Assembly: GCA_964016885.1 (NCBI GenBank)
Contig: CAXHJY010001514.1
Location: forward strand, 132,533 to 196,532
Length of the DNA: 64,000 nucleotides
Source: Eledone cirrhosa
Lineage: Eukaryota
Reading direction: 5' to 3'
The position numbers and the translations under genes are program-made. Positions 9,224 to 64,000 of the stretch are shown in pieces (within the stretch, counting starts at the first letter, position 1; each line of letters begins with the position of its first letter). The notes beneath the pieces are model-generated. The model made no database searches, was not told the origin of the DNA, and saw only the letters and a program-made list of their open reading frames with translations.

Positions 9224-11239
9224 ATAATAATAATAATGAAATTATAGTGTACAGTGCTCAGGTGCACTACAACTCGTCAAAGGTGTATGTATAGTACATA
9301 GAATAATATACAAATGTCAGGGAAGTGAACAGTGTATGAGTCATGATATACATGTGTATATGTGTATGGAGGGGGAACATTAGGTGTAGTGTTGGCGAAT
9401 CTCAGGAAGCATGGAGGTTTTAAAGGATGCAGTGTCTCGACAGCTAACAACTGATGCAGGTAGTTTGTTCCATGCTTCAGCAACTCTAAGCGTGAAAAAA
9501 TGTTTCCGAAAGTCATGGGAACTGTGCTGTTTTCTGACTTTGTGGGCATGACCATGTGTGTTAGACACATGGAAATCAAAAAGGTACTCAGGGTTGTTGT
9601 TGGCGAGATGGTTAACAATTTTGTGGGTGTTTACCAAGTCAGTTTCCAGACGTCAGAGCTTCAATGTATCCATGCCCAGAGAAGCAAGGCGTTCAGAGTA
9701 TGGTAGATGCCTGATGGAGGGTATTCGCTTGGTTGCACGTCTCTGAACAGTTTCCAGGCGGTCAATGTTCTGAGCAAGATAGGGGTTCCAGACTGGTGAT
9801 GCAAATTCTAAGTGTGGCCGCACCATAGCCATGTACAGCCTTAAATAGATAGCTGGAGAGCGGCTGACAAAGGTCTTGCTGAGTTATGCTAAGACACCCT
9901 TAGCCCTCTTGACAATTTTAGAGACGGGCTTCGTCCAACGCAAATCGCTGCTGACCGTAATGCCCAGGTCACGTTCACAAGAAGACTTCTTGATATTAGT
10001 GCTGCGGAGGGAGTATGTGGACGTTGGGTTTTTACTCCCAAAATGCATGGTGGTGCACTTGTCCACAGCTAGCTTGAGTTGCCAGTCTGAAATCCATTGT
10101 TGCATTGTGTCCAGGTCAGACTGCAAGCAAGATCTATAGTGTTCAGGATCTGTCCATTTTATCTCAAGGTACAGCTTGATGTCATCTGCGTACTTTAGTA
10201 CTGTGGCATTCTTTAAGTTGGCATCTATGTCATTAATATATGCCACAAACAAAAGGAGGCCAAGAACAGATCCCTGTGGTACACCAGATGACGTCTCATA
10301 TTGTGAGGAATGCTGTCCTAGAACCGTGACTACCTCTCTTCGACTGAGAATGAAGGACTTCAACCAGTTAAAAAGATCATCCTTCACACCCATTGCAGAG
10401 AGTTTTGCCATAAGCCTTTTGTGTGGCACAGAATTGAAAGCTTTCGCAAAGTCAAGGTCCACAACATCCACCCATGAGCCGCCATCAGTAATCCGGGTGA
10501 TGTCTTCAAGAAACTCGATAAGTTGATCACAGCAGCTGGAGTTGGGGATAAATCAAAATTGCGAGGGCCGGATAAGACTGTGAGAGTTCCAGAAGTTCCA
10601 AAGTGTTTCTCTGACACAGGATTCCATCATTTTGACACTGCAGCTAGTAAGACTGACTGGATGATAGTTCACAGGTGATGTGCGGTCACCCTTTTTGAAC
10701 AGAGGAAATACACTGGCAATTTTCCACTGTTCTGGAGTAGCACCATTGTTCAGACAGAATTGGAAGAAGCGTGATAGCGTGATAGTAGGAAGTACCCACC
10801 ACGTTTAAGAAGCAGGTATGTAACACCATCAAGACCAGGAGAGGCATGGTTGCATTTATTTTTTAGGTGACGTCGCAGCATTGCAGGTGTAAATTCCATG
10901 GTTGTAATAGAGTCCGGTGTCATAGGTGGTGGAGATGGTACACTCTGGTCTTCAATGCCTGCATAGCATTCAGCAATGAGCTCTGCGCATTGCTTGGGGT
11001 CATCAGTAACCTGGCTTGTGTGGGGATTGTGAAGAGGACCAACTGGAGAGTGAGGCCTCTGCTTTGAGTGAACATACTTCTAGAACACTTTACTGTCAGG
11101 GCTGGTTGCTATGCGCTGCTCAAATTGAAGCACTGCCTTTTTTGTCACCTGCTTGAGGTGGTTGGAGAATTTATTTCGCCTCTTCCTATTGATGTCTGAT
11201 TTGTGCAGTTTGTACTCACGTTCATCATTGCGACGTTCT
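9224..11239 (-). mobile_element. 5'-truncated, decayed CR1-group LINE (RT and 3' UTR with (ATT)n tail)
   Basis: ORF fragments LDFAKAFNSVPH, SGVPQGSVLG, YADD, HFFTLRVAEAWNKLP; frameshifts present. Confidence 0.92.
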
Positions 11240-21644: not shown

Positions 21645-21927
21645 GCAGAAGGGATATACAATTTGTTGGTAATTCAACAAATATAAATGTTTATAACTGA
21701 TTCAGAGCACTCGACAAGTTTTCTGGAGTATAATATTCAATGATATTAAATAAATGGAAACTATATTTATTAAACCATATTTATTCTATTATATATATAT
21801 TTCAAGGGTACCAAATTTTGGTACGCTCTCATCAGATAAAATACGAAGTGTGTTTTATAAATTTTGACATAACCAAGGAAAATATACCTTAACGGTTCAA
21901 GTTTTCCTTAGGAAAACTTGAACCGTT

Positions 21928-21936
<9 letters not shown>
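21645..21936 (-). mobile_element. PLE terminal (pLTR) fragment with hammerhead and 27-bp inverted 5' end
   Basis: same family as 46404-46864; terminal palindrome 21882-21936; flanked by (TA)n. Confidence 0.8.
21783..21842 (-). ncRNA. minimal type I hammerhead ribozyme
   Basis: attttat CTGATGA gagcgtaccaaa a tttggtaccctt GAAA tatatata TA atagaat. Confidence 0.8.
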
Positions 21937-22264: not shown

Positions 22265-22335
22265 TATTTTATCTGATGAGAACGCAAATATCATCCCATG
22301 ATGATATTTGTTTTTGAAATGCACATAATAAAATA
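22265..22335 (+). ncRNA. type I hammerhead ribozyme
   Basis: tattttat CTGATGA gaacgcaaatatcatc ccat gatgatatttgttttt GAAA tgcaca TA ataaaata; perfect 8-bp stem I. Confidence 0.85.
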
Positions 22336-22897: not shown

Positions 22898-23024
22898 ATA
22901 TATATATGTAGGAGGTGAGTTTTATTGTAGTACAATAAAGCAATGCAGATATCGGATAAGAAGCACTCTACAGTTTGTAGGACTGGAGTATACATAATAT
23001 GGAGTATACATAATATAAGATCAA

Positions 23025-25097
23025 AACCTAAATTCCTCAAAAAATGTTTTAGTCCACTCTGACAAAACCAATAACTTATATGGTATTTCCAAGGATAATT
23101 ATAACAACCTTATCCTAAAGGAACTTAGAAAAAAGTATCGTAAAACCAACCATGAAAATTTAGAATACATAAACCTTGAAGCCTCTGAGATTATGTCAAA
23201 ACTTGGCATTGAAAAAAAGACCGAACCATTCCTCCCAAGAACTCCGAGGATAAATCTCAAGGATCACAAAAACAATTTTCGCAAGGAACTACCTGTTAGA
23301 TTAATCGCCCCCTCTAAATCTGATCTGGGGGTTGTTAGTAAAGCCATCTTGGATAGAATTATCCCACAGGTTAGTTCTAATTGCTCTTCTTTGAACCTAA
23401 ATTTATGGTTTGGTACTTCTGAAGTGATTGGCTGGTTCAACAAATTGGATAATAAAAACAAACTAAAATTTATTCAATTTGATATTGCCAGCTACTATTC
23501 CTCCATTTCGCCTTCACTTCTCAATAATGCTCTATCTTTCGCACTTAAATATTCTGACATCACCACAGATGAACTTCACATCATCCTCACCGCACGTAAA
23601 ACCATCCTAGAGTTCAACAACGAATATTGGACCAGAGCCGATACCTCTAACAACTTCGACATCACAATGGGAGCATCCGATTCATCCCAATTGACTGATT
23701 TAATTGGTATCTTTATTTTGAACTCTTTGAGTCGGAAAATTCCTCAACTTCGCGGTGGAATTTATCGTGACGATGGACTCTTTACTATCTTAAATTGCAA
23801 TATAGTTTACCTTAATATTATTAAGAACAATATACGTAATCTCTTTAACCAACATAACCTAAAAATTGAATTTGATAATAGTATCAAACTAGCTAATTTC
23901 TTGGATGTATCTCTTAATCTTGACACTGGCCTATATTACCCTTACCATAAAAACAATGAGAACCTAAATTATGTTAACTTTAAATCTAACCATCCTACCA
24001 ATATCAAGAATGCTATAGTTAGTAATATTGGAAAAAGAATATCTAACATATCTTCTAATAAAAACATCTTTGATGCTAACGCCAATTACTATAATAACGC
24101 ACTTTCTAAAGCTGGCTATCCAGATAAAATCAAATATAGTAAAGAAACAAATTCTAGAAAAACTTACAGTAGAATAATTAATCATGATCATTCCAATAAT
24201 TTTAATAAAAGACCTAGATACAAAAACATAATCTGGTATAATGCTCCTTTCTCCATCTCTATTAATAACAATATTCCTAAATTATTTTTTAGTGCCTTAA
24301 ATAAATGCTTCCCTCCCTCACATATCTATAGTAAAATATTTAACAAACACACCATCAAATTTTCGTATTCTACATCCTCCAATATTTCCAACATCATCTC
24401 TAAACACAACAATAAAATACTAAATACTAAATCTCTTCCTTCCAACATTGAATTTCATAATAACAGTAATAGTACTCCCGACGTCATTGTAAACCCTAGG
24501 CTAACTTCTGTAAACCCAAATACAACGTCAAACACAACTTCGCTAAATGTTCATAATCCAACTCTAAATCAAGAAACTATTATTCCTATTATTCATATCG
24601 CAAACAACTTCTCCAATCCAATTCCTTCTATAGATAACACTAGGTCACTCATTAATAATCTCTCTAATTACAACTGCCGCATTAAAAATAAATGTCCTCT
24701 CAACAACCATTGTCTTGATAAAAACTTAATTTATGAATGTAAAGTTATAACTAGCACCAATTCCTTCACCTATTTTGGCTCCACTTCCACCTCTTTTAAA
24801 GCTCGTCTCTATAATCACCATTCATCTTTCAAATACAAACTTAAAAGAACCAACACGGCTCTCTCAGAACTCATATGGTCCTTGAAAGACAAAAACATTA
24901 AATATACCATCTTTTGGAAGAAGGTTTCTTCTGCATCCTCATACTTGAACAGCTCTCTATCTAAAATCTGTAATCTCTGCCTAAATGAAAAATTTACCAT
25001 TATCTCTAATCTAGATTCTATAATAAATAGACGTACAGATTTGTTTTCTATCTGCCTGCATAAATTCCATAGGACTTTTCACAAAGTATACAGTTAA
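23025..25097 (+). CDS. PLE reverse transcriptase plus GIY-YIG endonuclease (N-truncated, no internal stops; first ATG 23193)
   Basis: SDKTNNLY, FDIASYYSSI, TMGAS, YRDDG, NFLDV; NCR..CPL..CL, LIY...YFG, FKARLYNH, CNLCLNEK, CLH. Confidence 0.92.
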   Translation, partial: NLNSSKNVLVHSDKTNNLYGISKDNYNNLILKELRKKYRKTNHENLEYINLEASEIMSKLGIEKKTEPFLPRTPRINLKDHKNNFRKELPVRLIAPSKSDLGVVSKAILDRIIPQVSSNCSSLNLNLWFGTSEVIGWFNKLDNKNKLKFIQFDIASYYSSISPSLLNNALSFALKYSDITTDELHIILTARKTILEFNNEYWTRADTSNNFDITMGASDSSQLTDLIGIFILNSLSRKIPQLRGGIYRDDGLFTILNCNIVYLNIIKNNIRNLFNQHNLKIEFDNSIKLANFLDVSLNLDTGLYYPYHKNNENLNYVNFKSNHPTNIKNAIVSNIGKRISNISSNKNIFDANANYYNNALSKAGYPDKIKYSKETNSRKTYSRIINHDHSNNFNKRPRYKNIIWYNAPFSISINNNIPKLFFSALNKCFPPSHIYSKIFNKHTIKFSYSTSSNISNIISKHNNKILNTKSLPSNIEFHNNSNSTPDVIVNPRLTSVNPNTTSNTTSLNVHNPTLNQETIIPIIHIANNFSNPIPSIDNTRSLINNLSNYNCRIKNKCPLNNHCLDKNLIYECKVITSTNSFTYFGSTSTSFKARLYNHHSSFKYKLKRTNTALSELIWSLKDKNIKYTIFWKKVSSASSYLNSSLSKICNLCLNEKFTIISNLDSIINRRTDLFSICLHKFHRTFHKVYS

Positions 25098-32977: not shown

Positions 32978-33504
32978 GTAAGTAACACAATTTCTACTTT
33001 TTTATAAACATCATCTATGTACTAAAGAGCTAATAAGAGATTATGTGTAGTGTAAATTGTTGGTCATGCTATGGAAAGGGGATGGTAAAAGTGTGAGAGA
33101 GAGAGTAACTAATTACTTTTTAAAACTTTGATCACACTGTGATATTTCGTATTTGATAATGACAGATCCTCTATTGGTTTCAACAGTATTTAGTTGTCCA
33201 ACTGAACATCCAACTTATAAACAAACATATAAGTGGTTGAGTATTCCACTGACAAGTAGACCCATGACATAATTCTCAGGCAGAATCAGAAAAAGAAGTT
33301 ACCATCAGCTGCCAATAGCAACTTCTTTTTCCATCTTTTAAGGGTGTTCACTCTATTTTATAACCTATCTTTATAGCATTTCATACATTCTCAGCGCTTC
33401 AAAAGCCAAAAATTCAGCCATTCATCACCTGAAATCCAAAACTATTTTTCCCCATAGGAAATGTTGAGAGAGAAATACAATGTTTGAGAGACTGTGTGAA
33501 AGAC

Positions 33505-35525
33505 AGAGAGTATGGGAGTTTCAGGGCATCCTTTTTCCAAAACTTATCCTCATTCAACAGTATATTATTCATCTCTGCCCATTGGATAACAGCCAGTAGG
33601 TCTGACTGAAGGCAAGTCCGGTCACCCACCTCATTGATGACCCTTTGGAGCTTGGAATCATCTGCGAAGATTCTGATGTTACTGTGCTTGATAATGTCAG
33701 TAATATAATTAATGTAGATGATGAAAAGAAGTGGGCCCAACACAGTGCCTTGTGGGATGCCACTGTGGACTTTGGCAGGGCTTGATTCTACTCCTTCGAC
33801 TACAACATGCTGGGTTCTGCCTGTCAGGAAACATTTGATCCACTGTAGTAACCTTCCAGAGACACCAACATTGGATAGTTTTTTCAGTAGAATCTTATGA
33901 TCAACCCTGTCGAAGGCCTTGCTGAAATCAAGGTAGATGACATCAGTGTTGGAGCCCTCTCCCAAGGCTCTCCAAACATCGTCAAAGTGATGCAGGAGCT
34001 GCGTTAGGCAGTCCCTTCCATTACAGAACCCATGTTGGTTGGAGTTCAGCAGGCCGTTGCTTTCTAGAAAGTGGGTTATTCGTGATCTCACCACCCTCTC
34101 AAATACCTTGATAATATGAGAGGTGAGCGAGATTGGACGGTAGTTCACTGCAAGGGACTTATTTCCCTTTTTGAAGACTGGGACAGAAAGTTTTCAGGAA
34201 TATAGCCAGTATCCAGTGAGTTCCTCCACAGATTAGCAAGAGGAGTTGCAAGTTGGTGTCAACACACCTTCAGGACACAAGCAGGGAACCTATCGGGGCC
34301 TACTGCTGAATTGTGTTTAATTTCGTTTATTGCCGCTAAGACATCATGGGTGCCAAACGTTATGTCTGATATAGTGTGTTGGGGATTAACATCACTGATA
34401 CAGCCCAGATCGGCCATATCAGGATTGCTGAAAACAGAGCAGTATTGTTTCTGCAGTATCTCACCCGTGATTTTGGCATTGTCCTGGAGTGTGCCATTTT
34501 CATCAACTAGGGGGCCAACAGTGGAGACAGTGACCTTGTGTTTTTTAACAAATGAAAAAAACACTTTGGGGTTGAGTTTGATTTTCTCAATGGCCCACTT
34601 CTCTTCAGATGTTCTTTGATTATTGATAATGGTTTTTATGTTATATTTATTTGACTCAAGCAGGGCGATAGCCATTGAATGTGTGTGTTGCTGTTGGCAG
34701 TATTTTAGTGTGTTAATTTTTTTGTTTGTTCTTTTTATTTTTCTGATAATAGTTTTTCTGTTTTGGGGGATACTGCACTTAGTTTTGTTCACAGGTTTTG
34801 GTGGGGTGTGTTTTGCACATATATTTGTGACAGTGTCTACAAAGATCTGCCAAGATGTTTTAATGTTGGTGGAAATGAGTGCGTGTGTAAAAGACCAGTC
34901 GACATGTGATAGCTCGTTCATGATTGCATCCCAGTTGGCATTGTGGAGATCCATGTTATCAAATGGGTGGGCTGGAAAGAGGTCCCTGTGATTATCTTAC
35001 GGCTGGTGGAATCTCAGGTTACAAAGAACCATGTCATGGTCTGAGAGAAGGGTCTTTTTCTACTGTGATATTATGTATAGTGTTAGTGTGGTTACTAAAC
35101 ACTAGATCCAGAATGTTCTTCTGATACCTTGTCGGTGCAAGGACAAGTTAGGACAAGAAAAATTCATTCATAAAGTCAAGAAGCGACTAAACTGCTTCTT
35201 TGTCAGTGGTTGAGGCTGTGGAGCCTGGTTTCAAACTACATGCAGACCAATCGACACAGGGTAGATTAAAGTCTCCATCAAAAGTATATTACTAGAATGG
35301 CACTGTTGAATACAGCACTTAATGCTGTTGAGGCATTCTTTGAAGCACATGATGGGTGTTTGGGGTGGCCTATAGAGCCCAACTAATATCAGGTCATTGG
35401 CTTTGTTGTGCACTGTGACTGATTCACAGTAGCCATTGGAGAATGTTGTGTTACCATCTGCTGTAAAGGAATCATGCAGGAAAATGGCAGTTCCACCCTT
35501 CCTTCTGTCAACACGATCCGCACGG
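33505..35525 (-). mobile_element. decayed CR1/Jockey-group LINE fragment (APE endonuclease plus RT)
   Basis: LVGLYRPP, NYRPISLTS, YLDFSKAFDRVDH, SGIPQGTVLGP, FADD; frameshifted, truncated at both ends. Confidence 0.92.
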
Positions 35526-42589: not shown

Positions 42590-42805
42590 ACTACTTTAGA
42601 ATTGTCTTAGATTTTACGTGGTGGTGGTGTTATATAAAATTGCTATTGTAGTTGTTTTACCTGTTCCAGCCAATGGGATGTGGCCATGCTGCAGTACCAT
42701 TATTAAGATTAACATGAGGAATGGTTTATACTGTCTATTTGAGTTTTTTAAGTATCTATTTGTTTATTTATTTGTTTAATTATTTGTTTGTTTATTTATT
42801 GGCAG

Positions 42806-44247
42806 ACTGTCGAAAAACGAAAGACAAAGGTCATAAAAATGAGAACCCAGGTGGAATGAACTCACAATCCATGAAACCCTCTTCTACAATGTCTGGTAAC
42901 AACCAGAATAATCTAGAAGGTCACCATTATGATAAGCAGACAGTGAATCAAGAATCTGAGGCTCTCTTTACAGGGGTACAATCCAAATTATCCAACAATA
43001 ACAGCGACCAGAGCGAGGTCAGTGACAACTGTGCCATGTTTCTAGAGAAGGGCAATGAATCAATGAAACTCGATAACAAAAACTCAAGGCGTAAAGCAGA
43101 AAAACCAAGAAAGCGTCGGCGAGAGAACGAAACCATTGAAGAGAATTATATGGAAGATGAATTTCTGAGTGAACATAAAGACATGGACAGCAAGATCACA
43201 CGCCTCATCAGTAGCATTGATGATAACAAAAATAATTCAGGGGAGATAAATCATATAAAATCCAATGTAGCTATGTCAATAAGGAACCAAGATAAACTAA
43301 CAACCAATATATCTTCTATACCTGAAGATTTATCAACAAAGTCAGTAACTATAGTCCATTCTCCAGGTCAGACTTCACACTTACCAAATTCAACATCTAA
43401 TAGAGATTGTACATCAGACTGGGCTGTTGAAAGTAACTCTCATGACTTCTCACATCAACACACGTCAGTGAAAGACTTGGAAGATGTAATGAACCGACAC
43501 TTACCAACAATTACAGAGAATCCTGATTCCAACATGAATGGAGAGATGAACAGTCGGTACCAGTCACGTCATAAACCAACTATACAGTGGATTGGATCCC
43601 ATCAGAATGCATCAGATTCTCTTCCAGCTTCAAATCTTCTCAGATCAATTTTTGCTAATCGAGAATCCGTCATTCGAAGCAGCCGTCCTCAGTGTTATAA
43701 TGACATTCCTGTAAGTATGCTAACGCCACCTAGTGGTGATGGAGGTTACAAAGATCCAACAAATGCATCAATGTCATCAATGACAAATGGAAGCAAGGCA
43801 TCTATCAACCATGATACACAATATGTCGCTTCTACATATGCCTCCACTCCACTAACCGTTTCTATGTCATGTAACGCCATGTCGGACTCTTACACTATTA
43901 CTCCCCCATCTTCTGTATCGCCTCAAGATAAACTACACTCACCTTTCACCGATGTCAGCTATGTGGATAGTACAACACAGTGTACAAATCTCCCAGCTGA
44001 CAACCCTGCTATCCAGCGTATACCTGTCAAACCACAAGCTGGATATACATTAACTGTCACCTCACCTCAAAACCTTGACTACGATCATACAAAATCAACA
44101 GGATTCCAAGCTTCTACTCCATACAACCCAACATCCTCAGAGTACAGCCATTATAGTCACATGAACAATGCTAATAATACTCCTTCTTACGACCACAATA
44201 ACCATAGATCTACTGGGCCATGGTACTCTACAGCATACACAAATTAA
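42806..44247 (+). CDS. trh/NPAS3: trachealess/NPAS3-like terminal exon (basic NLS-like patch, C-terminal region)
   Basis: ggcAG acceptor in phase 1 joins ORF 42721-44247; [55 protein letters not shown] resemble invertebrate Trachealess C-terminal motifs; the nine exons sum to 2403 nt (801 codons). Confidence 0.92.
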
Positions 44248-46230: not shown

Positions 46231-46372
46231 ATAATATATATTGGTGTTAGGAAGGGCATCCAGCTGTAGAAAACCCGCCAGACAGTCCTATGCGAGCAAG
46301 ATAACCACTCTTGCCTCAAGTGGGAAAACCCTCAGTCCAAACCCATGCAAGCGTGGAACACGGACGTTAAAC

Positions 46373-46403
<31 letters not shown>
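46221..46403 (+). mobile_element. RTE-family 3' UTR fragment with (GAT)n tail
   Basis: matches the reverse complement of 22388-22540. Confidence 0.8.
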
Positions 46404-46448
46404 TACAATATATTAACAAATGGAAACTATATTTATAAAACCATATTT

Positions 46449-46511
46449 ATTTCATTATACATATTTCAAGGACACCATAGCAAATTATGGTGTGCTTTCA
46501 TCAGATAAAAT
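46449..46511 (-). ncRNA. type I hammerhead ribozyme (mirror copy)
   Basis: reverse complement of 46669-46731. Confidence 0.82.
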
Positions 46512-46668
46512 ATAATATAGATCAGTTTTATAAACAAATATTAACATACCCTTAAAGAATGCAACCATTACTGTTGGAAGCTCCCGGACTATCCAGGAGC
46601 TTCCAACAGTAATGGTTGCATTCTTTAAGGGTATGTCAATATTTGTTTATAAAACTGATCTATATTAT

Positions 46669-46731
46669 ATTTTATCTGATGAAAGCACACCATAATTTGC
46701 TATGGTGTCCTTGAAATATGTATAATGAAAT
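46669..46731 (+). ncRNA. type I hammerhead ribozyme
   Basis: attttat CTGATGA aagcacaccata atttgc tatggtgtcctt GAAA tatgta TA atgaaat. Confidence 0.85.
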
Positions 46732-47099
46732 AAATATGGTTTTATAAATATAGTTTCCATTTGTTAATATATTGTATTTTTACTCCAAAAATTTGTTGAG
46801 TGCTTTATATCAGTTATAAAAATATTTGCTTCTTGTATCCCAACAAATTAAATATAACTTCTACATATATATATATATATATTATATATATATGATATGT
46901 AATGTATATATATGTATATATATGATATATATATATAAATGATGATGATGATATCATATATATGTTATATATCATATATCATATATATTATATATATATA
47001 TATTTTATATTATATATATATATTATATATATATATATTATATATATATTATATATATATATAACCCATGGGAGATAGAAGTTAAACGATGATGATGAG

Positions 47100-49355: not shown

Positions 49356-49554
49356 ATTTAAGTATTGAGAGAGAGCAGAATAGATAAGTGATACATATAG
49401 TTAGTTGCCAATAGCTTGTGCAAATATGCTCAATACTTGTGCCTACAGGGTTAAATATTAGAAGCGTTAATATTTAGCGGGCGAGAAGATAAGCAGAGCG
49501 TTACAAGTGAAATGATTACAAAGGAGAATATACTGTTAAAACATGTTTATATAA

Positions 49555-49597
49555 AAGCACCTACGTACGTTTCGCCCGAAAAGGGCTTCTCAAGGGC
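49555..49597 (-). ncRNA. variant hammerhead (mirror copy)
   Basis: reverse complement of 51222-51264. Confidence 0.7.
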
Positions 49598-51219
49598 ATA
49601 AAAAACTAAAAATTGTTCAGTACATGACCCGAGAGGACTTTTAAGGTTATAATTACATCAATTACATGAGTGATGGCGTAGAAAACCTTCCGCACAATAA
49701 AGGTCACAATACTGGTAACGGTAGCTGCTGTAGTCTACTAGAATTATTCCCTAACTATAAGATTAGCGATGGCCTATTACCAACGCCCTCCAACCGGTGT
49801 TTAGCTACACATAAATGTAACAGATGGAAGGCTCGTGCACCCGAACATAAAGCGAAGGGGACGCATAACTGGCTACAGCACAGTAACAACCATAAGAACG
49901 GTCACCTAGGAAGCACAACCCGTAACAAACACACAGATACGCGGAAATGCCACCATAATGTTCTATGGTTCCATCCTCCCTACTCTCGGAGTGTGGCTTC
50001 CGACCTACCCAGGATATTCTTCGAAGCCTTAGAGAAGAACTTCCTACCCAACCATAAATACAGGAAAATCCTCAATAAGAACAATATTAAAATATCCTTC
50101 TCTACTACTCCTAATCTAGCAGACATCATAGGAACAACTAATCACAGTAAGATCACCAAAACACGGCACCTTAGCACCGATACGTCTAGACCCAACAGCA
50201 GCCCTAATAGCCTTAATGTCTCCCTAGCAGCACCCAATAGTGTTGGCGGCAGCCCCAACAGATGTAACCGACATAACCGAGGCAAGACTGGAGAGTAAGC
50301 TGGTGAACCATACAGGTCACCCACCAGCAACAGAAGGCGCTGCAGCGTGCGGAGTGATAATGGTACTACCCCGCACGCCATAGGATATAATAGTACTAAC
50401 GACCAAGATAGAGACGTAGATAACAACATAGGTAGCAATAGTAAAAGCTTACTTCAGGAACTAGGAGCAACCGCGACCAAAAATGCAACTGTCACAACGG
50501 GGGAAGCTGCCCTCTCAGGGGAAATTGCCTGATTGATAATGTTATATATAGGTGCACCATAACTAGCCATAATAGAGTTAAACATTATATAGGGGCCACC
50601 TCTGGCCAGTTCAAAACTAAATTTCGAACACATCTCCACTCTTTTAGAAACAAAAAACTAAGACAGTCCACGTCACTTGCCAATTACATCACAACATTAA
50701 AAAACGCCAATATCAGCTACTCCACGCACTAGGAAATTGTCGGCAGGGCAGCACCATACAATTTCAAGAGGAAGTGCGAGCTTTTCCTCATGGAACTTTA
50801 CTATATCATAAGAGCACCCCTCATAAACAGCAGAGCAGAATCGGTGATAAAATGCAGGCACTGAATACAGGTGTTTTACTTCGGATGGAAATCAGCTGAG
50901 GCATGAAAACCATAAACTAGGTCCCCCTGCACCAAATCATAACACTCCGGTGGGCAGGCGGCGCAAATAAAAATTGTGAACCAACTATGCATCCGCGACC
51001 ATGCTTAAATCGACAATAGTAAAGCAGCACCCAACAAATAGTAATGGGAAAACACCATCAGGTGAACGGGTAATAAGCAGTTTGGGGACGATTATTCAAA
51101 CACGGCCAGAGTTAATCCCCTTGCTCTGTGGTAAAAACAACACGTGTGTTTGAAGGAAGAATGAACTTTGATGAAATTATAACCTTAAAACCCTTTACGG
51201 GTCATTTTTTTAGTTTTCT

Positions 51220-51264
51220 AGGCCCTTGAGAAGCCCTTTTCGGGCGAAACGTACGTAGGTGCTT
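51220..51264 (+). ncRNA. variant hammerhead with U3:A8 core
   Basis: aggccc TTGAGAA gccc ttttc gggc GAAA cgtacg TA ggtgctt. Confidence 0.72.
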
Positions 51265-51403
51265 TTATATAAACATGTTTTAACGGTATATTCTCCTTTG
51301 TAATCATTTCACGTATATATATATATATATATGTGTGTACATATATATATGTATATATATATATGTATATATATGTATGTATATATATATGTATATATAT
51401 ATG

Positions 51404-51434
<31 letters not shown>

Positions 51435-51444
51435 GTATATATAT

Positions 51445-51980
51445 ATAAACGGAAAAAAATGAAACTAAATTTCATTTCTCACTCTTAGTACGGCTATTAC
51501 TTAAATATAAGTATGTATACGTACATACATATATGTATACAGACGTACAGTTGTATGTATATATATATATATACATACATGCATACATATATATATGTAC
51601 GTATGGATTCACCAAACATTTATTATAATGCTCGGTGTGTTTGTAAACAAACATCCCGAATTAAGCCGTACAGTGTCTAGCAACCATCGTTGCTCGTTTG
51701 TTCAACACTAACAAAGGAACGCTGTACTAGTTTCAAGCTTATTAGCTATCATCAGCAACATTTACCTTCCTGCCAGATGGTTGAATGTCTGAAAGTATAT
51801 ACTTTCCTTATGCATATTAACGGCTGAGCAGCCTAATTTGCATATCGAGTGAGTTAATTGGCCGGGGTACCCAAAACGATAAACGGAAACAATGAAACGA
51901 AATTTCATTTCTCACTCTTAGTACGGCTGTTCGGTGAGTAAATGTTCGGAGAATCCATACGTACATATATATATGTGTGC

Positions 51981-52011
<31 letters not shown>

Positions 52012-52126
52012 CTACTGTACATCTGTATACATATATGTATGTACGTGTACATACTTATATTTAAGTAACAGCCGTACAAAGAGTGAGAAATGAAATTTTG
52101 TTTCATTTTTTCCTTTTATCGTTTTC
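51445..52126 (-). mobile_element. diverged retrozyme-family copy: one 434-bp unit, a partial second unit and an inverted end
   Basis: ataaacggaaa..atgaaac repeats at 51445 and 51879; 51939-52126 is the inverse of 51445-51621; homologous to the 60634-63037 units. Confidence 0.85.
51718..51762 (-). ncRNA. minimal type I hammerhead ribozyme
   Basis: aatgttg CTGATGA tagctaataagctt GAAA ctag TA cagcgtt. Confidence 0.82.
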
Positions 52127-52269
52127 TCTTTATTTGATAGTTTGTAACTAACCTTACATAGATCAATTACTGAGTATAGATACAATGTATTATCATCATC
52201 TAGAAACGATCGTAATGCAGTGAAGTATATCTTTAATGACTTTTTTTCTATTTCATTGTTTTAACTCAT

Positions 52270-56659: not shown

Positions 56660-56841
56660 TATGGGAGCCCCTACATGGACACACTAGAAGAGGAAGACCA
56701 AGGTTAACATATGTTGATGCCCTAAGGACAGACGCTGGTCTGTTGGAGATGCAGGATATGGCAGCGATAATGAGGGACAGAGACCGCTGGAGAGAACTCG
56801 TCCATGGATCTCGGGAATTTTACCCGCCTTAGATAGATAGA
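56660..56841 (+). mobile_element. RTE-type LINE 3' end with (TAGA)n tail
   Basis: [21 protein letters not shown]...[11 protein letters not shown]. Confidence 0.8.
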
Positions 56842-60633
<3,792 letters not shown>

Positions 60634-60781
60634 AAATTTCGTTTTCATTTTGTTTCAATTTATCGTTTTCGGTATGCCTAACCGATTTAACTCACTCAAT
60701 ATGCAAATTAGGCTGCTCAGCCGTTAATTTTCATAAGGAAAGTATATACTTTCGAACGTTCAACTATCTGGCAGATGGGTA

Positions 60782-60826
60782 AACGGTGCTGATGATAGCT
60801 AACAAGCTTGAAACTAGTACATCGTT
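60782..60826 (+). ncRNA. minimal type I hammerhead, unit 1
   Basis: aacggtg CTGATGA tagctaacaagctt GAAA ctag TA catcgtt. Confidence 0.87.
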
Positions 60827-60980
60827 CCTGTGTCAGTGTTGAACAAAAAGGTGACGTGGTTGCCTTAACACCGTATGGCATAAATTTAGGCTGTTCAGTT
60901 TGTTTACAAACGAACAAAGCGACGTTAGCGCCGCTAAACTGATACGTGCATATATGTATGTGTACCTGTATGCATATGTA

Positions 60981-61017
<37 letters not shown>

Positions 61018-61246
61018 GTGCATGCTACTGTACGTCTGTATACATATATGTATGTACGTATACATGCATACTTACATTTAAGTAAGTGCCATACTAAGAG
61101 TGAGAAATGAAATTTTGTTTCAATTTATCGTTTTCGGTATGCCTAACCGATTTAACTCACTCAATATGCAAATTAGGCTGCTCAGCCGTTAATTTTCATA
61201 AGGAAAGTATATACTTTCGAACGTTCAACTATCTGGCAGATGGGTA

Positions 61247-61291
61247 AACGGTGCTGATGATAGCTAACAAGCTTGAAACTAGTACATCGTT
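61247..61291 (+). ncRNA. minimal type I hammerhead, unit 2
   Basis: identical to unit 1. Confidence 0.87.
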
Positions 61292-61445
61292 CCTGTGTCA
61301 GTGTTGAACAAAAAGGTGACGTGGTTGCCTTAACACCGTATGGCATAAATTCAGGCTGTTCAGTTTGTTTACAAACGAACAAAGCGACGTTAGCGCCGCT
61401 AAACTGATACGTGCATATATGTATGTGTACCTGTATGCATATGTA

Positions 61446-61487
<42 letters not shown>

Positions 61488-61724
61488 CATGCTACTGTAC
61501 GTCTGTATACATATATGTATGTACGTATACATGCATACTTACATTTAAGTAAGTGCCATACTAAGAGTGAGAAATGAAATTTCGTTTTCATTTTGTTTCA
61601 ATTTATCGTTTTCGGTATGCCTAACCGATTTAACTCACTCAATATGCAAATTAGGCTGCTCAGCCGTTAATTTTCATAAGGAAAGTATATACTTTCGAAC
61701 GTTCAACTATCTGGCAGATGGGTA

Positions 61725-61769
61725 AACGGTGCTGATGATAGCTAACAAGCTTGAAACTAGTACATCGTT
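61725..61769 (+). ncRNA. minimal type I hammerhead, unit 3
   Basis: identical to unit 1. Confidence 0.87.
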
Positions 61770-61923
61770 CCTGTGTCAGTGTTGAACAAAAAGGTGACGT
61801 GGTTGCCTTAACACCGTATGGCATAAATTCAGGCTGTTCAGTTTGTTTACAAACGAACAAAGCGACGTTAGCGCCGCTAAACTGATACGTGCATATATGT
61901 ATGTGTACCTGTATGCATATGTA

Positions 61924-61960
<37 letters not shown>

Positions 61961-62201
61961 GTGCATGCTACTGTACGTCTGTATACATATATGTATGTAC
62001 GTATACATGCATACTTACATTTAAGTAAGTGCCATACTAAGAGTGAGAAATGAAATTTCGTTTTCATTTTGTTTCAATTTATCGTTTTCGGTATGCCTAA
62101 CCGATTTAACTCACTCAATATGCAAATTAGGCTGCTCAGCCGTTAATTTTCATAAGGAAAGTATATACTTTCGAACGTTCAACTATCTGGCAGATGGGGT
62201 A

Positions 62202-62246
62202 AACGGTGCTGATGATAGCTAACAAGCTTGAAACTAGTACATCGTT
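62202..62246 (+). ncRNA. minimal type I hammerhead, unit 4
   Basis: identical to unit 1. Confidence 0.87.
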
Positions 62247-62400
62247 CCTGTGTCAGTGTTGAACAAAAAGGTGACGTGGTTGCCTTAACACCGTATGGCA
62301 TAAATTCAGGCTGTTCAGTTTGTTTACAAACGAACAAAGCGACGTTAGCGCCGCTAAACTGATACGTGCATATATGTATGTGTACCTGTATGCATATGTA

Positions 62401-62437
<37 letters not shown>

Positions 62438-62677
62438 GTGCATGCTACTGTACGTCTGTATACATATATGTATGTACGTATACATGCATACTTACATTTA
62501 AGTAAGTGCCATACTAAGAGTGAGAAATGAAATTTCGTTTTCATTTTGTTTCAATTTATCGTTTTCGGTATGCCTAACCGATTTAACTCACTCAATATGC
62601 AAATTAGGCTGCTCAGCCGTTAATTTTCATAAGGAAAGTATATACTTTCGAACGTTCAACTATCTGGCAGATGGGTA

Positions 62678-62722
62678 AACGGTGCTGATGATAGCTAACA
62701 AGCTTGAAACTAGTACATCGTT
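62678..62722 (+). ncRNA. minimal type I hammerhead, unit 5
   Basis: identical to unit 1. Confidence 0.87.
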
Positions 62723-62876
62723 CCTGTGTCAGTGTTGAACAAAAAGGTGACGTGGTTGCCTTAACACCGTATGGCATAAATTCAGGCTGTTCAGTTTGTT
62801 TACAAACGAACAAAGCGACGTTAGCGCCGCTAAACTGATACGTGCATATATGTATGTGTACCTGTATGCATATGTA

Positions 62877-62918
<42 letters not shown>

Positions 62919-63037
62919 CATGCTACTGTACGTCTGTATACATATATGTATGTACGTATACATGCATACTTACATTTAAGTAAGTGCCATACTAAGAGTG
63001 AGAAATGAAATTTCGTTTTCATTTTGTTTCAATTTAT

Positions 63038-63938
<901 letters not shown>

Positions 63939-64000
63939 TTTCGTTTCTGAATTTGTTTAGCAAGATTCTTTATCTGAAATCGTGTGTTGAAACCGATATT

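Follow-up and report, generated by a model that had tools for sequence, protein, structure and literature searches.

We examined a 64,000-nucleotide stretch of the Eledone cirrhosa genome (contig CAXHJY010001514.1, positions 132,533 to 196,532 of the forward strand; hereafter the window), which is the terminal part of a contig of 196 kb; the assembly as a whole amounts to 3.0 Gb. Close to the right-hand edge of the window, a compound (TA)n tract is interrupted by a tandem array on the plus strand (60634-63037; period 478, 5.1 copies, 98% match) whose units each carry a hammerhead ribozyme motif. This array is a new family within a known kind of mobile element, the retrozymes without long terminal repeats (LTRs). 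The parts of the insertion and its flanks are listed below, with positions within the unit (u) numbered on unit 3.

56833..60633, no strand: upstream compound (TA)n target tract (repeat scan)
60634..63037, plus strand: whole insertion, five units and a 30-nt lead-in, with a fixed 3' end, a truncated 5' end and no inverted arm
60634..60663, plus strand: lead-in, the final 30 nt of a further unit, with 5' truncation at unit position 447 of 476
60664..61128, plus strand: unit 1, 465 bp, with one substitution and an 11-bp deletion in the tail
61129..61606, plus strand: unit 2, 478 bp
61607..62082, plus strand: unit 3, 476 bp, reference for the unit numbering
62083..62559, plus strand: unit 4, 477 bp, with one extra G
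62560..63037, plus strand: unit 5, 478 bp, terminating at site A
63038..63939, no strand: downstream compound (TA)n target tract (repeat scan)

A first-pass annotation of this DNA, made from the letters alone, had reported five near-identical head-to-tail units within (TA)n, and all five were located. The array amounts to 5.06 units, as a single direct arm that ends at the fixed site A described below. Apart from the substitution and deletion in unit 1 and the extra G in unit 4, the units differ in having (TA)13 or (TA)14, and these small differences indicate that they are not a single sequence pasted five times. The annotation had also singled out a 30-nt terminal redundancy as a structural feature. 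The string in question stands at 60634 and 63008, but it also occurs inside the array at 61577, 62053 and 62530 and is therefore an ordinary part of every unit. The lead-in is neither an LTR nor a target-site duplication; it is the truncation point. Comparison of the left and right (TA)n flanks revealed no apparent mirror relation, nor do they allow a target-site duplication to be read. Within the upstream tract, G-interrupted and C-interrupted blocks alternate, that is, blocks of opposite orientation, which may have originated by repeated nicking and fold-back at the target.

The array appears to be non-coding, as had been claimed. The stop-to-stop frames that overlap it lie on the minus strand only and encode 118-137 amino acids (aa); a Pfam scan of two of these frames gave no match, and no open reading frame (ORF) for a reverse transcriptase (RT) with a GIY-YIG endonuclease, which would characterise an autonomous Penelope-like element (PLE), is present in the array. 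The GC content is 0.27 for positions 60001-62000, flank included. Rfam microRNA matches in the window were dismissed as low-complexity noise.

Identical hammerhead cores begin at 60789, 61254, 61732, 62209 and 62685, one in each of the five units, and define the following motifs.

60782..60826, plus strand: type I hammerhead 1, predicted cut after 60819
61247..61291, plus strand: type I hammerhead 2, predicted cut after 61284
61725..61769, plus strand: type I hammerhead 3, predicted cut after 61762, with the anatomy described below
62202..62246, plus strand: type I hammerhead 4, predicted cut after 62239
62678..62722, plus strand: type I hammerhead 5, predicted cut after 62715

The cuts after GUA and their spacings of 465, 478, 477 and 476 nt match those of the first-pass annotation exactly. 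The core elements follow in the order CUGANGA, GAAA and NUH, closed by helix I, and the motif combines a 6-bp stem I and an invariant U1.7 with a mismatch at 10.1-11.1, a 4-bp helix II and a palindromic helix III. Stem I had been given as seven base pairs; six of them hold, whereas the seventh would be A-U in only 2 of the 28 aligned family copies. The U1.7 is invariant although this seventh pair is not conserved, and we take it to be a position of tertiary contact. A review of hammerheads names only a conserved reverse Hoogsteen pair. The one Rfam match, to Hammerhead_HH9 (E 0.042), was below threshold, with 18.5 bits where gathering requires 52, and the ribozyme call is therefore based on the letters of the core and on covariation rather than on Rfam. 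The description of the ribozyme as "minimal type I" does not fit, since minimal hammerheads (min-HHRs) are defined by the absence of helix III, a long helix II (7-8 bp) and a short helix I (PMC4209133), whereas the element has a short palindromic helix III; its class would be the canonical metazoan type I with such a helix.

A loop of 2 nt is unable to close helix III in the monomer, so that a partner ribozyme is needed, and the palindromic helix is predicted to pair with that of a second copy at -4.8 kcal/mol. Such dimeric cleavage is known for short-helix-III motifs (PMC4209133, PMC6765202). When the monomer or the circle is folded by prediction, the core is paired with the cut site, which leaves the three inner pairs of stem I a probability of only 0.18-0.28, and sequestration of the ribozyme is a plausible off state in this model. 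The monomer from cut to cut is strongly structured (-163 kcal/mol, z -8.8), and a large share of this comes from one feature of each unit.

61883..62006, plus strand: alternating purine-pyrimidine tract with (TA)13-14, a predicted long hairpin, one per unit, which also serves as a locus-specific haplotype marker

The element is not confined to this locus. A 306-bp piece returned 497 first-look candidates, and the 40 that were scored are 100% identical and belong to six separate arrays on one chromosome-scale contig. The exact junction between site A and (TA)n occurs 922 times genome-wide (0 for a reversed control), which sets the number of insertions with this 3' end at no fewer than 922, and a hammerhead-core pattern for the wider family gave 12,098 matches. 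The copies range from dimers to multimers, in arrays of variable unit number; the dispersed copies together with their fixed insertion ends rule out a single-locus satellite. Two runs with other organism codes (X5 and X6) contain exact or near-exact 74-208 nt pieces of the young unit in contigs, and these could come from the same or a close species; a single 35-nt piece less than 90% alike, in run X3, was set aside. The four matching runs are contigs of unknown kind and are uninformative on expression.

The ends of these insertions are what connects the element to PLEs. Three features of the last unit are needed here.

63037, plus strand: site A, the fixed 3' end joined to (TA)n
62969..62978, plus strand: site B, unit positions ~408-417, where the inverted arms of sister insertions start; unused as an end here
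62976..63037, plus strand: PLE-type tail, about 60 nt between B and A, by end mapping in sister loci

The end analysis drew on contig C1: from the first 41 A-end loci in the list for this contig we took 40, and 39 of these were assessable (L072 was left out). An inverted arm, head to head with the direct arm, starts from site B in 32 of the 39 (30 by pattern, plus L068 and L046), and the remaining seven have an A arm only, like the copy in the window. None of the 32 two-arm loci has A at both ends. Among arrays that were not selected on A, the A/B pairing is found in five of six, and B-end junctions (573 on the forward strand) are about as frequent as A ends. The arms join at random points with 0-5 nt of overlap or a few extra bases, sites A and B are located at or beside small predicted hairpins, and no LTR structure was seen in the 46 loci inspected. 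Of the 91 non-continuing tails in a tail scan, 88 run out into TA repeats; the A ends had been selected on their TA flank, while the B ends had not, and these unselected ends agree.

The insertion ends are fixed at site A or B or lie at random truncation points, and they are not set by the ribozyme cut. PLEs are known for a one-sided tail, for a second copy that is inverted and 5'-truncated, and for (TA)n targeting (PMC8557442, PMC3846280), and a purified PLE nicks and extends both strands in vitro, its RT starting internally at two sites that flank the tail (PMC11167929). The ends of the element therefore bear the PLE insertion signature. The first-pass annotation had suggested a non-LTR retrozyme that uses PLE enzymes, and the two-site signature in 32 of 39 loci lends this strong support: the element almost certainly belongs to the retrozymes that are mobilised by PLEs.

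Beyond the young family there are older relatives, which bear on whether the ribozyme has been maintained. The older subfamilies are ~80% identical, with units of ~434-450 bp. One of their copies lies in the window at 51444-52120 (direct arm on the minus strand), with a core at 51755, an inverted arm and U-G for G-U in stem I. Family 2 (L149-L181), which was found through the tail, is 63% identical outside the microsatellite and has 157 exact cores. Family 3 (L182-L205; 2,022 candidates) has a ~443-bp unit and a longer, still near-palindromic helix III, along with several octamer-like repeats and no alternating tract. Both families show the same A/B insertion signature as the young one, and they are distant sister families that keep the ribozyme fold, palindromic helix III included.

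The ribozyme varies in a restricted manner among these relatives. In public contigs, variants at 5% or more within the 31-nt core are found only at N7, 10.1 and loop II (run X1 may be the source sample itself). In the older subfamilies, changes affect N7, loop II and 10.1/11.1; the cut triplet reads GUA or GUU, and a single pair of stem I occurs as G-U, A-U, U-G or G-C. Positions 10.1 and 11.1 are mostly mismatched across all three families: they are U-U in the young family, where none of 34 distinct copies pairs there, C-A, C-U or U-A in the older subfamilies, and A-A in families 2 and 3. Relative to family 1, family 2 has two helix I pairs, two helix II pairs and the centre of the helix III palindrome replaced on both sides. 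Covariation within family 1 alone is weak (0.072 against 0.051, reached in 8 of 500 shuffles), whereas an alignment of families 1 and 2 is 95.2% paired against 83.0% when shuffled, with a covariation of 0.344 against 0.136 that none of 500 shuffles reached. These values support a ribozyme fold under selection, in which helices I-III have been kept by compensatory change. The two alignments, A1 (28 of 58 rows) and A2 (18 of 64), were hand-chosen, junction-truncated and redundant rows being omitted. The old family 1 rows were found by a core-fixing pattern and so cannot show conservation of the core; the family 2 rows of A2 were found via the tail.

A second conserved motif lies upstream of the ribozyme.

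61644..61651, plus strand: octamer motif, placed 88 nt ahead of the hammerhead core, with further occurrences at 60701, 61166, 62120 and 62597

This octamer stands 87-93 nt upstream of the core and is exact in 26 of 27, 13 of 18, 14 of 21 and 19 of 24 loci in four groups of relatives; it is followed by a TATA-like stretch. From its conservation we consider it a candidate internal promoter element. An octamer is the distal element of small nuclear RNA (snRNA) promoters. Newt satellite 2 has an internal snRNA-type promoter (PMC2220036), which the motif described here may parallel. More distant octamer-bearing relatives were seen at L038:6120-6330 (minus strand, E 9e-4) and L086:3020-3100 (minus strand, E 6e-5), the former with a hammerhead-like motif and adjoining a PLE reverse transcriptase fragment.

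What served as the template of these insertions can be approached through the lengths of their arms, which were taken by hand with small corrections (L046 and L070 were left out of the direct arms, and L046, L062 and L065 out of the inverted ones). Arm lengths fit an exponential (direct, p 0.95 for the 30 arms above tail length; inverted, p 0.46 for 29 arms), and truncation phases are uniform around the unit (Kolmogorov-Smirnov p 0.89, 23 long arms). Seven of the 37 direct arms consist of the tail only, while at least one cut site is crossed by 23 of the 37 direct and 16 of the 29 inverted arms. A single long arm out of 23 stops within 5 nt of a cut, and the crossing itself is exact in 260 of 265 copies, with a substitution in four and a deletion in one. 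Since stops and scars at the cut are almost absent, the RT met no RNA end, and the template was either a circle or an uncut multimer.

The haplotypes of the arms are informative on this choice. Most units (251 of 275) have the modal microsatellite shape of their own locus, and among the 26 loci with two arms, both arms agree in shape in 21 (permutation mean 3.9; 0 of 20,000) and in shape and length in 17 (permutation mean 2.0). Four loci whose non-repeat cores are identical to those of the window (L033-L036) each have their own haplotype in both arms. Fixation extends to point variants: 188G>T is fixed in both arms of L071 and 166T>C in both arms of L042, L116 has two variants in 12 of 12 units, and L051 is also fixed for a point variant in every covering unit. 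Genome-wide, 188G>T gave 92 matches, mostly single by spacing, and among the six loci inspected (L071, L105-L109) it runs throughout the array in L071 only. In a survey of 35 loci (235 units), a small sample of the ~1000, we counted 103 single-unit variants, five of which recur at a second locus and never two together. A double variant in L057 was considered as a one-off event and rejected, as it belongs to a sublineage of 15 loci; of the eight sublineage loci examined, seven are fixed. The fixed variants and arm haplotypes favour a repeated bottleneck of one unit, most simply a circle. The earlier suggestion that the multimer arose by rolling copying of a circular RNA is in line with the shared haplotypes and with the random arm lengths.

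The mechanism that we consider probable is a retrozyme moved by a PLE protein with the circular monomer as template. The array would be transcribed from an internal promoter, probably via the conserved octamer, and two neighbouring hammerheads, pairing through their palindromic helix III, would cut the multimer into ~476-nt monomers, the covariation speaking for the structure of the ribozyme. A host ligase could then close the monomer to a circle, as is known for other retrozymes, in which the lone ribozyme would be mostly folded off. A PLE endonuclease/RT would nick both strands of a (TA)n tract, as in the enzymology known from another PLE, and cDNA would start internally at A and B, 60 nt apart, in agreement with the pattern of ends seen here. 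Each cDNA would roll round the same circle for a random distance, which the architecture and the shared haplotypes suggest, and the two would be joined head to head through 0-5 nt of microhomology, the cDNA begun at B becoming the inverted arm and the one begun at A the direct arm. The copy in the window would be an A-only product. The more specific proposal, in which a PLE-type RT primes twice (at A and B, on the two nicked (TA)n strands) on one and the same hammerhead-made circle and rolls from both, we put forward tentatively, at slightly less than an even chance.

Several points weigh against this mechanism. The canonical G10.1-C11.1 pair is absent from the hammerhead, and its loss may slow cleavage; as the mismatch departs from the canonical G-C, the activity of the ribozyme is uncertain. 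The both-sided changes stem mostly from one lineage split, and their count of six was reached by 126 of 500 shuffles. Only one of nine predicted retrozyme dimers was cleaved in vitro (bioRxiv 10.64898/2026.07.22.740005), and PLE derivatives that are non-autonomous and hammerhead-less also make multicopy head-to-tail insertions (PMC8557442). The fetched loci, about 1 Mb in all, yielded no autonomous PLE that has sequence in common with the unit. The permutation of arm haplotypes ignores subfamily relatedness, the 60-deletion/76G haplotype of the sublineage is common to 15 loci on 11 contigs (99 matches), and L111, the eighth sublineage locus, is a mosaic of two haplotypes, while L048 alternates. 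Dimer or trimer periodicity is present in L046, L107, L110 and L113, and higher-order repeats in the old arrays L105, L106 and L108. Finally, the PLE studied in vitro used unprocessed RNA, as its main substrate, and did not need the hammerhead (PMC11167929).

This last point, in particular, is what one would expect if the same element and the same PLE machinery had copied an uncleaved multimeric read-through of a young, homogeneous source array, the hammerhead trimming only some transcripts. Arms that cross the cut without scars are equally expected from such a template, the haplotype of the 15 loci shows that source arrays can be fixed for a variant, and the L111 mosaic also speaks for it. 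However, mosaics should then be inherited, which is at odds with the five recurrences among 103 single-unit variants and with the lack of any two loci sharing two. New private variants keep becoming fixed, as in L116 and L071, so that a one-unit bottleneck would be needed all the same. Old arrays diverge rather than homogenise, and the ribozyme fold is kept in three families. We therefore regard an uncleaved template as unlikely.

Alternatively, the PLE machinery could have inserted short monomers or dimers like PLE pseudo-LTRs (pLTRs), the arrays expanding later in place by unequal crossing-over. Such crossing-over is shown to have reshaped some arrays, and the periodic single-unit variants in L046, L107, L110 and L113, the higher-order repeats in L105, L106 and L108 and the mostly short insertions of the older families all point in this direction. 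Yet both arms would have to expand independently, the distribution of their lengths is a single smooth exponential without a break at the length of one unit, and the youngest arrays already have up to 16 identical units (L115), whereas periodicity is found in mutated arrays. As an explanation of how the arrays arose, growth in place thus seems rather improbable. The old arrays themselves have become higher-order satellites with periods of about 4.7 kb and 3.1 kb (L105, at G000:C14:25.07-25.39 Mb, L106 and L108), one of which contains a small internal inversion. Periodic matches on C14 and C4 were considered as autonomous elements and rejected, as they are old higher-order arrays.

Repeated end-to-end jumping of the RT on a linear, ribozyme-cut monomer, with no circle, would also give a one-unit bottleneck, and both the inverted junctions and L111 show that templates were switched, but we consider it very improbable, since a pile-up of 5' ends and scars at the cut would both be expected, against one end in 23 within 5 nt and one deletion in 265.

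The genome carries several (TA)n-targeting PLEs, including Neptune-type and Hydra-type elements, none of which shares detectable sequence with the unit among the loci fetched. The Neptune-type PLE (L123-L127, e.g. G000:C5:17087000-17096999; 18,517 first-look candidates) is very young and has many intact RT/GIY-YIG frames of 784 aa, overlapped from upstream by a 455-aa frame that is read in a different phase; it targets (TA)n and has a tail of ~41 nt. No hammerhead with a stem I of at least 5 bp was found inside it, and it has no significant similarity to the unit. A tblastn search with three PLE proteins against 57 family 2 and 3 loci gave eight scattered matches and no consistent junction between an ORF and a pLTR. 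Two candidate associations were rejected: in L034, where the Neptune-type PLE meets an old retrozyme copy, the two elements differ in age, which speaks against a co-insertion, and the presumed ORF-pLTR junction in L189 involves an untranslated region that continues differently in L100.

Other PLE-type sequences lie within the window. A Hydra-type element at 23019-25097 (plus strand) has DKT and CxCx5C-like motifs, with hammerheads nearby at 22273 (plus), about 22167 (minus) and 26186 (plus). A second Hydra-type terminal repeat forms head-to-head palindromic pairs with hammerheads at 46330-46860 and about 21780-21930, the hammerheads being at 46676 (plus) with its mirror and, on the minus strand, near 21835. 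At 49500-51310 there is a palindromic truncated PLE pair, in which a frame at 49645-50298 resembles a Hydra-type protein and the repeat holds a variant hammerhead-like motif. The inverted arm of the old subfamily copy is directly followed, at 52118-52268, by a 150-bp piece that belongs to another PLE-type family (1,090 candidates) and represents its 3' end without the tail; the junction, a single case, could be a template-switch co-insertion, which would point to the helper, or a later insertion with a deletion. Outside the PLEs, fragments of LINE-type RT were found at 9884-10552 and 33414-34193 (both minus strand; PF00078, E about 1e-26), and a 509-aa open frame at 42718-44247 (plus strand), serine/asparagine-rich, resembles a host last exon; it has no match in Pfam and no usable one in the Protein Atlas (best score 0.78).

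Whether animal retrozymes move through circles, and with whose enzymes, is under discussion. Circles were proposed in a 2020 paper, in which PLEs appear as the candidate source of the enzymes. A 2026 preprint argues for a PLE origin but also discusses local amplification, and the hammerhead was dispensable in an in vitro PLE study. The insertion footprints described here tie the spread of a retrozyme to PLE chemistry. Because the family is young, with ~1000 insertions, two fixed ends and a built-in marker, the rival templates differ in predictions that can be counted on existing sequence, and the question of a circular template becomes countable. A 476-nt substrate with mapped start sites is also available for a reconstituted PLE reaction. 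If the proposal of two priming events on one circle is correct, it would provide the missing evidence for the circular intermediate that has been proposed for retrozymes and PLEs, and it would explain the head-to-head arms and one-sided tails of PLEs in one model. The three or more retrozyme families would then form an old superfamily that has an octamer promoter of its own and parasitises PLEs with which it shares no detectable sequence.

In the open-access literature we found no description of this family or of a retrozyme with such an end signature. To judge from its frames and its helices, the element is neither an autonomous PLE nor a min-HHR. Metazoan non-LTR retrozymes are non-coding, low-GC tandem units of 150-450 bp with a type I hammerhead (Cervera and de la Pena 2020, PMC7229834), which occur as dimers to large multimers and for which a circle and a PLE helper have been proposed. 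The present element resembles them in its tandem type I hammerhead units, its lack of coding capacity, its low-GC units of a few hundred bp and its dispersed multimers. Its unit of 465-478 bp is above their range, but falls inside the 51-972 bp of the 2026 preprint. In the available text of PMC7229834, RNA and cleavage are shown and the link to PLEs is only proposed, whereas here the fixed PLE-like ends are read from the genome alone; the words "inverted" and "microsatellite" do not occur in its main text. Most metazoan retrozyme circles in that paper leave the ribozyme free to fold, while the predicted monomer fold of the present element sequesters it. The preprint of Li, Clavereau and Pollet (bioRxiv 10.64898/2026.07.22.740005) likewise describes tandem hammerhead repeats tied to PLEs, mostly of seven units or fewer. 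As far as its available text goes, the link rests there on co-occurrence in 35 genomes, no mollusc among them, and on pLTR homology in Xenopus. Here, the fetched loci contain no homologous pLTR, and it is the end signature and arm haplotypes that bear on the mechanism.

Endonuclease-bearing (EN+) PLEs such as Neptune, Naiad and Hydra (Craig et al. 2021, PMC8557442; Arkhipova et al. 2013, PMC3846280; Frangieh et al. 2024 on PAc in vitro, PMC11167929) have the same 5' truncation, inverted copy, one-sided tail, (TA)n targeting and two internal RT starts. Their tail is 30-40 nt long, against ~60 nt here (~45 nt in family 2), and the present element differs further in having no ORF and in its two arms, each of which may extend over many units. 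Chlamys elements, for instance MRC1 (PMC8557442), are of the same non-autonomous PLE type with multicopy head-to-tail insertions; by that account they have no canonical hammerheads and a 3' end like that of their helper, neither of which is true of our element. Newt satellite 2 and the Schistosoma Sm-alpha repeat (as cited in PMC2220036 and PMC6765202) likewise consist of tandem hammerhead repeats, and they have an internal promoter and dimeric cleavage with a short helix III, such as are predicted for the present element. Among these relatives, the family reported here is a non-LTR retrozyme whose insertion footprints are unusually informative.

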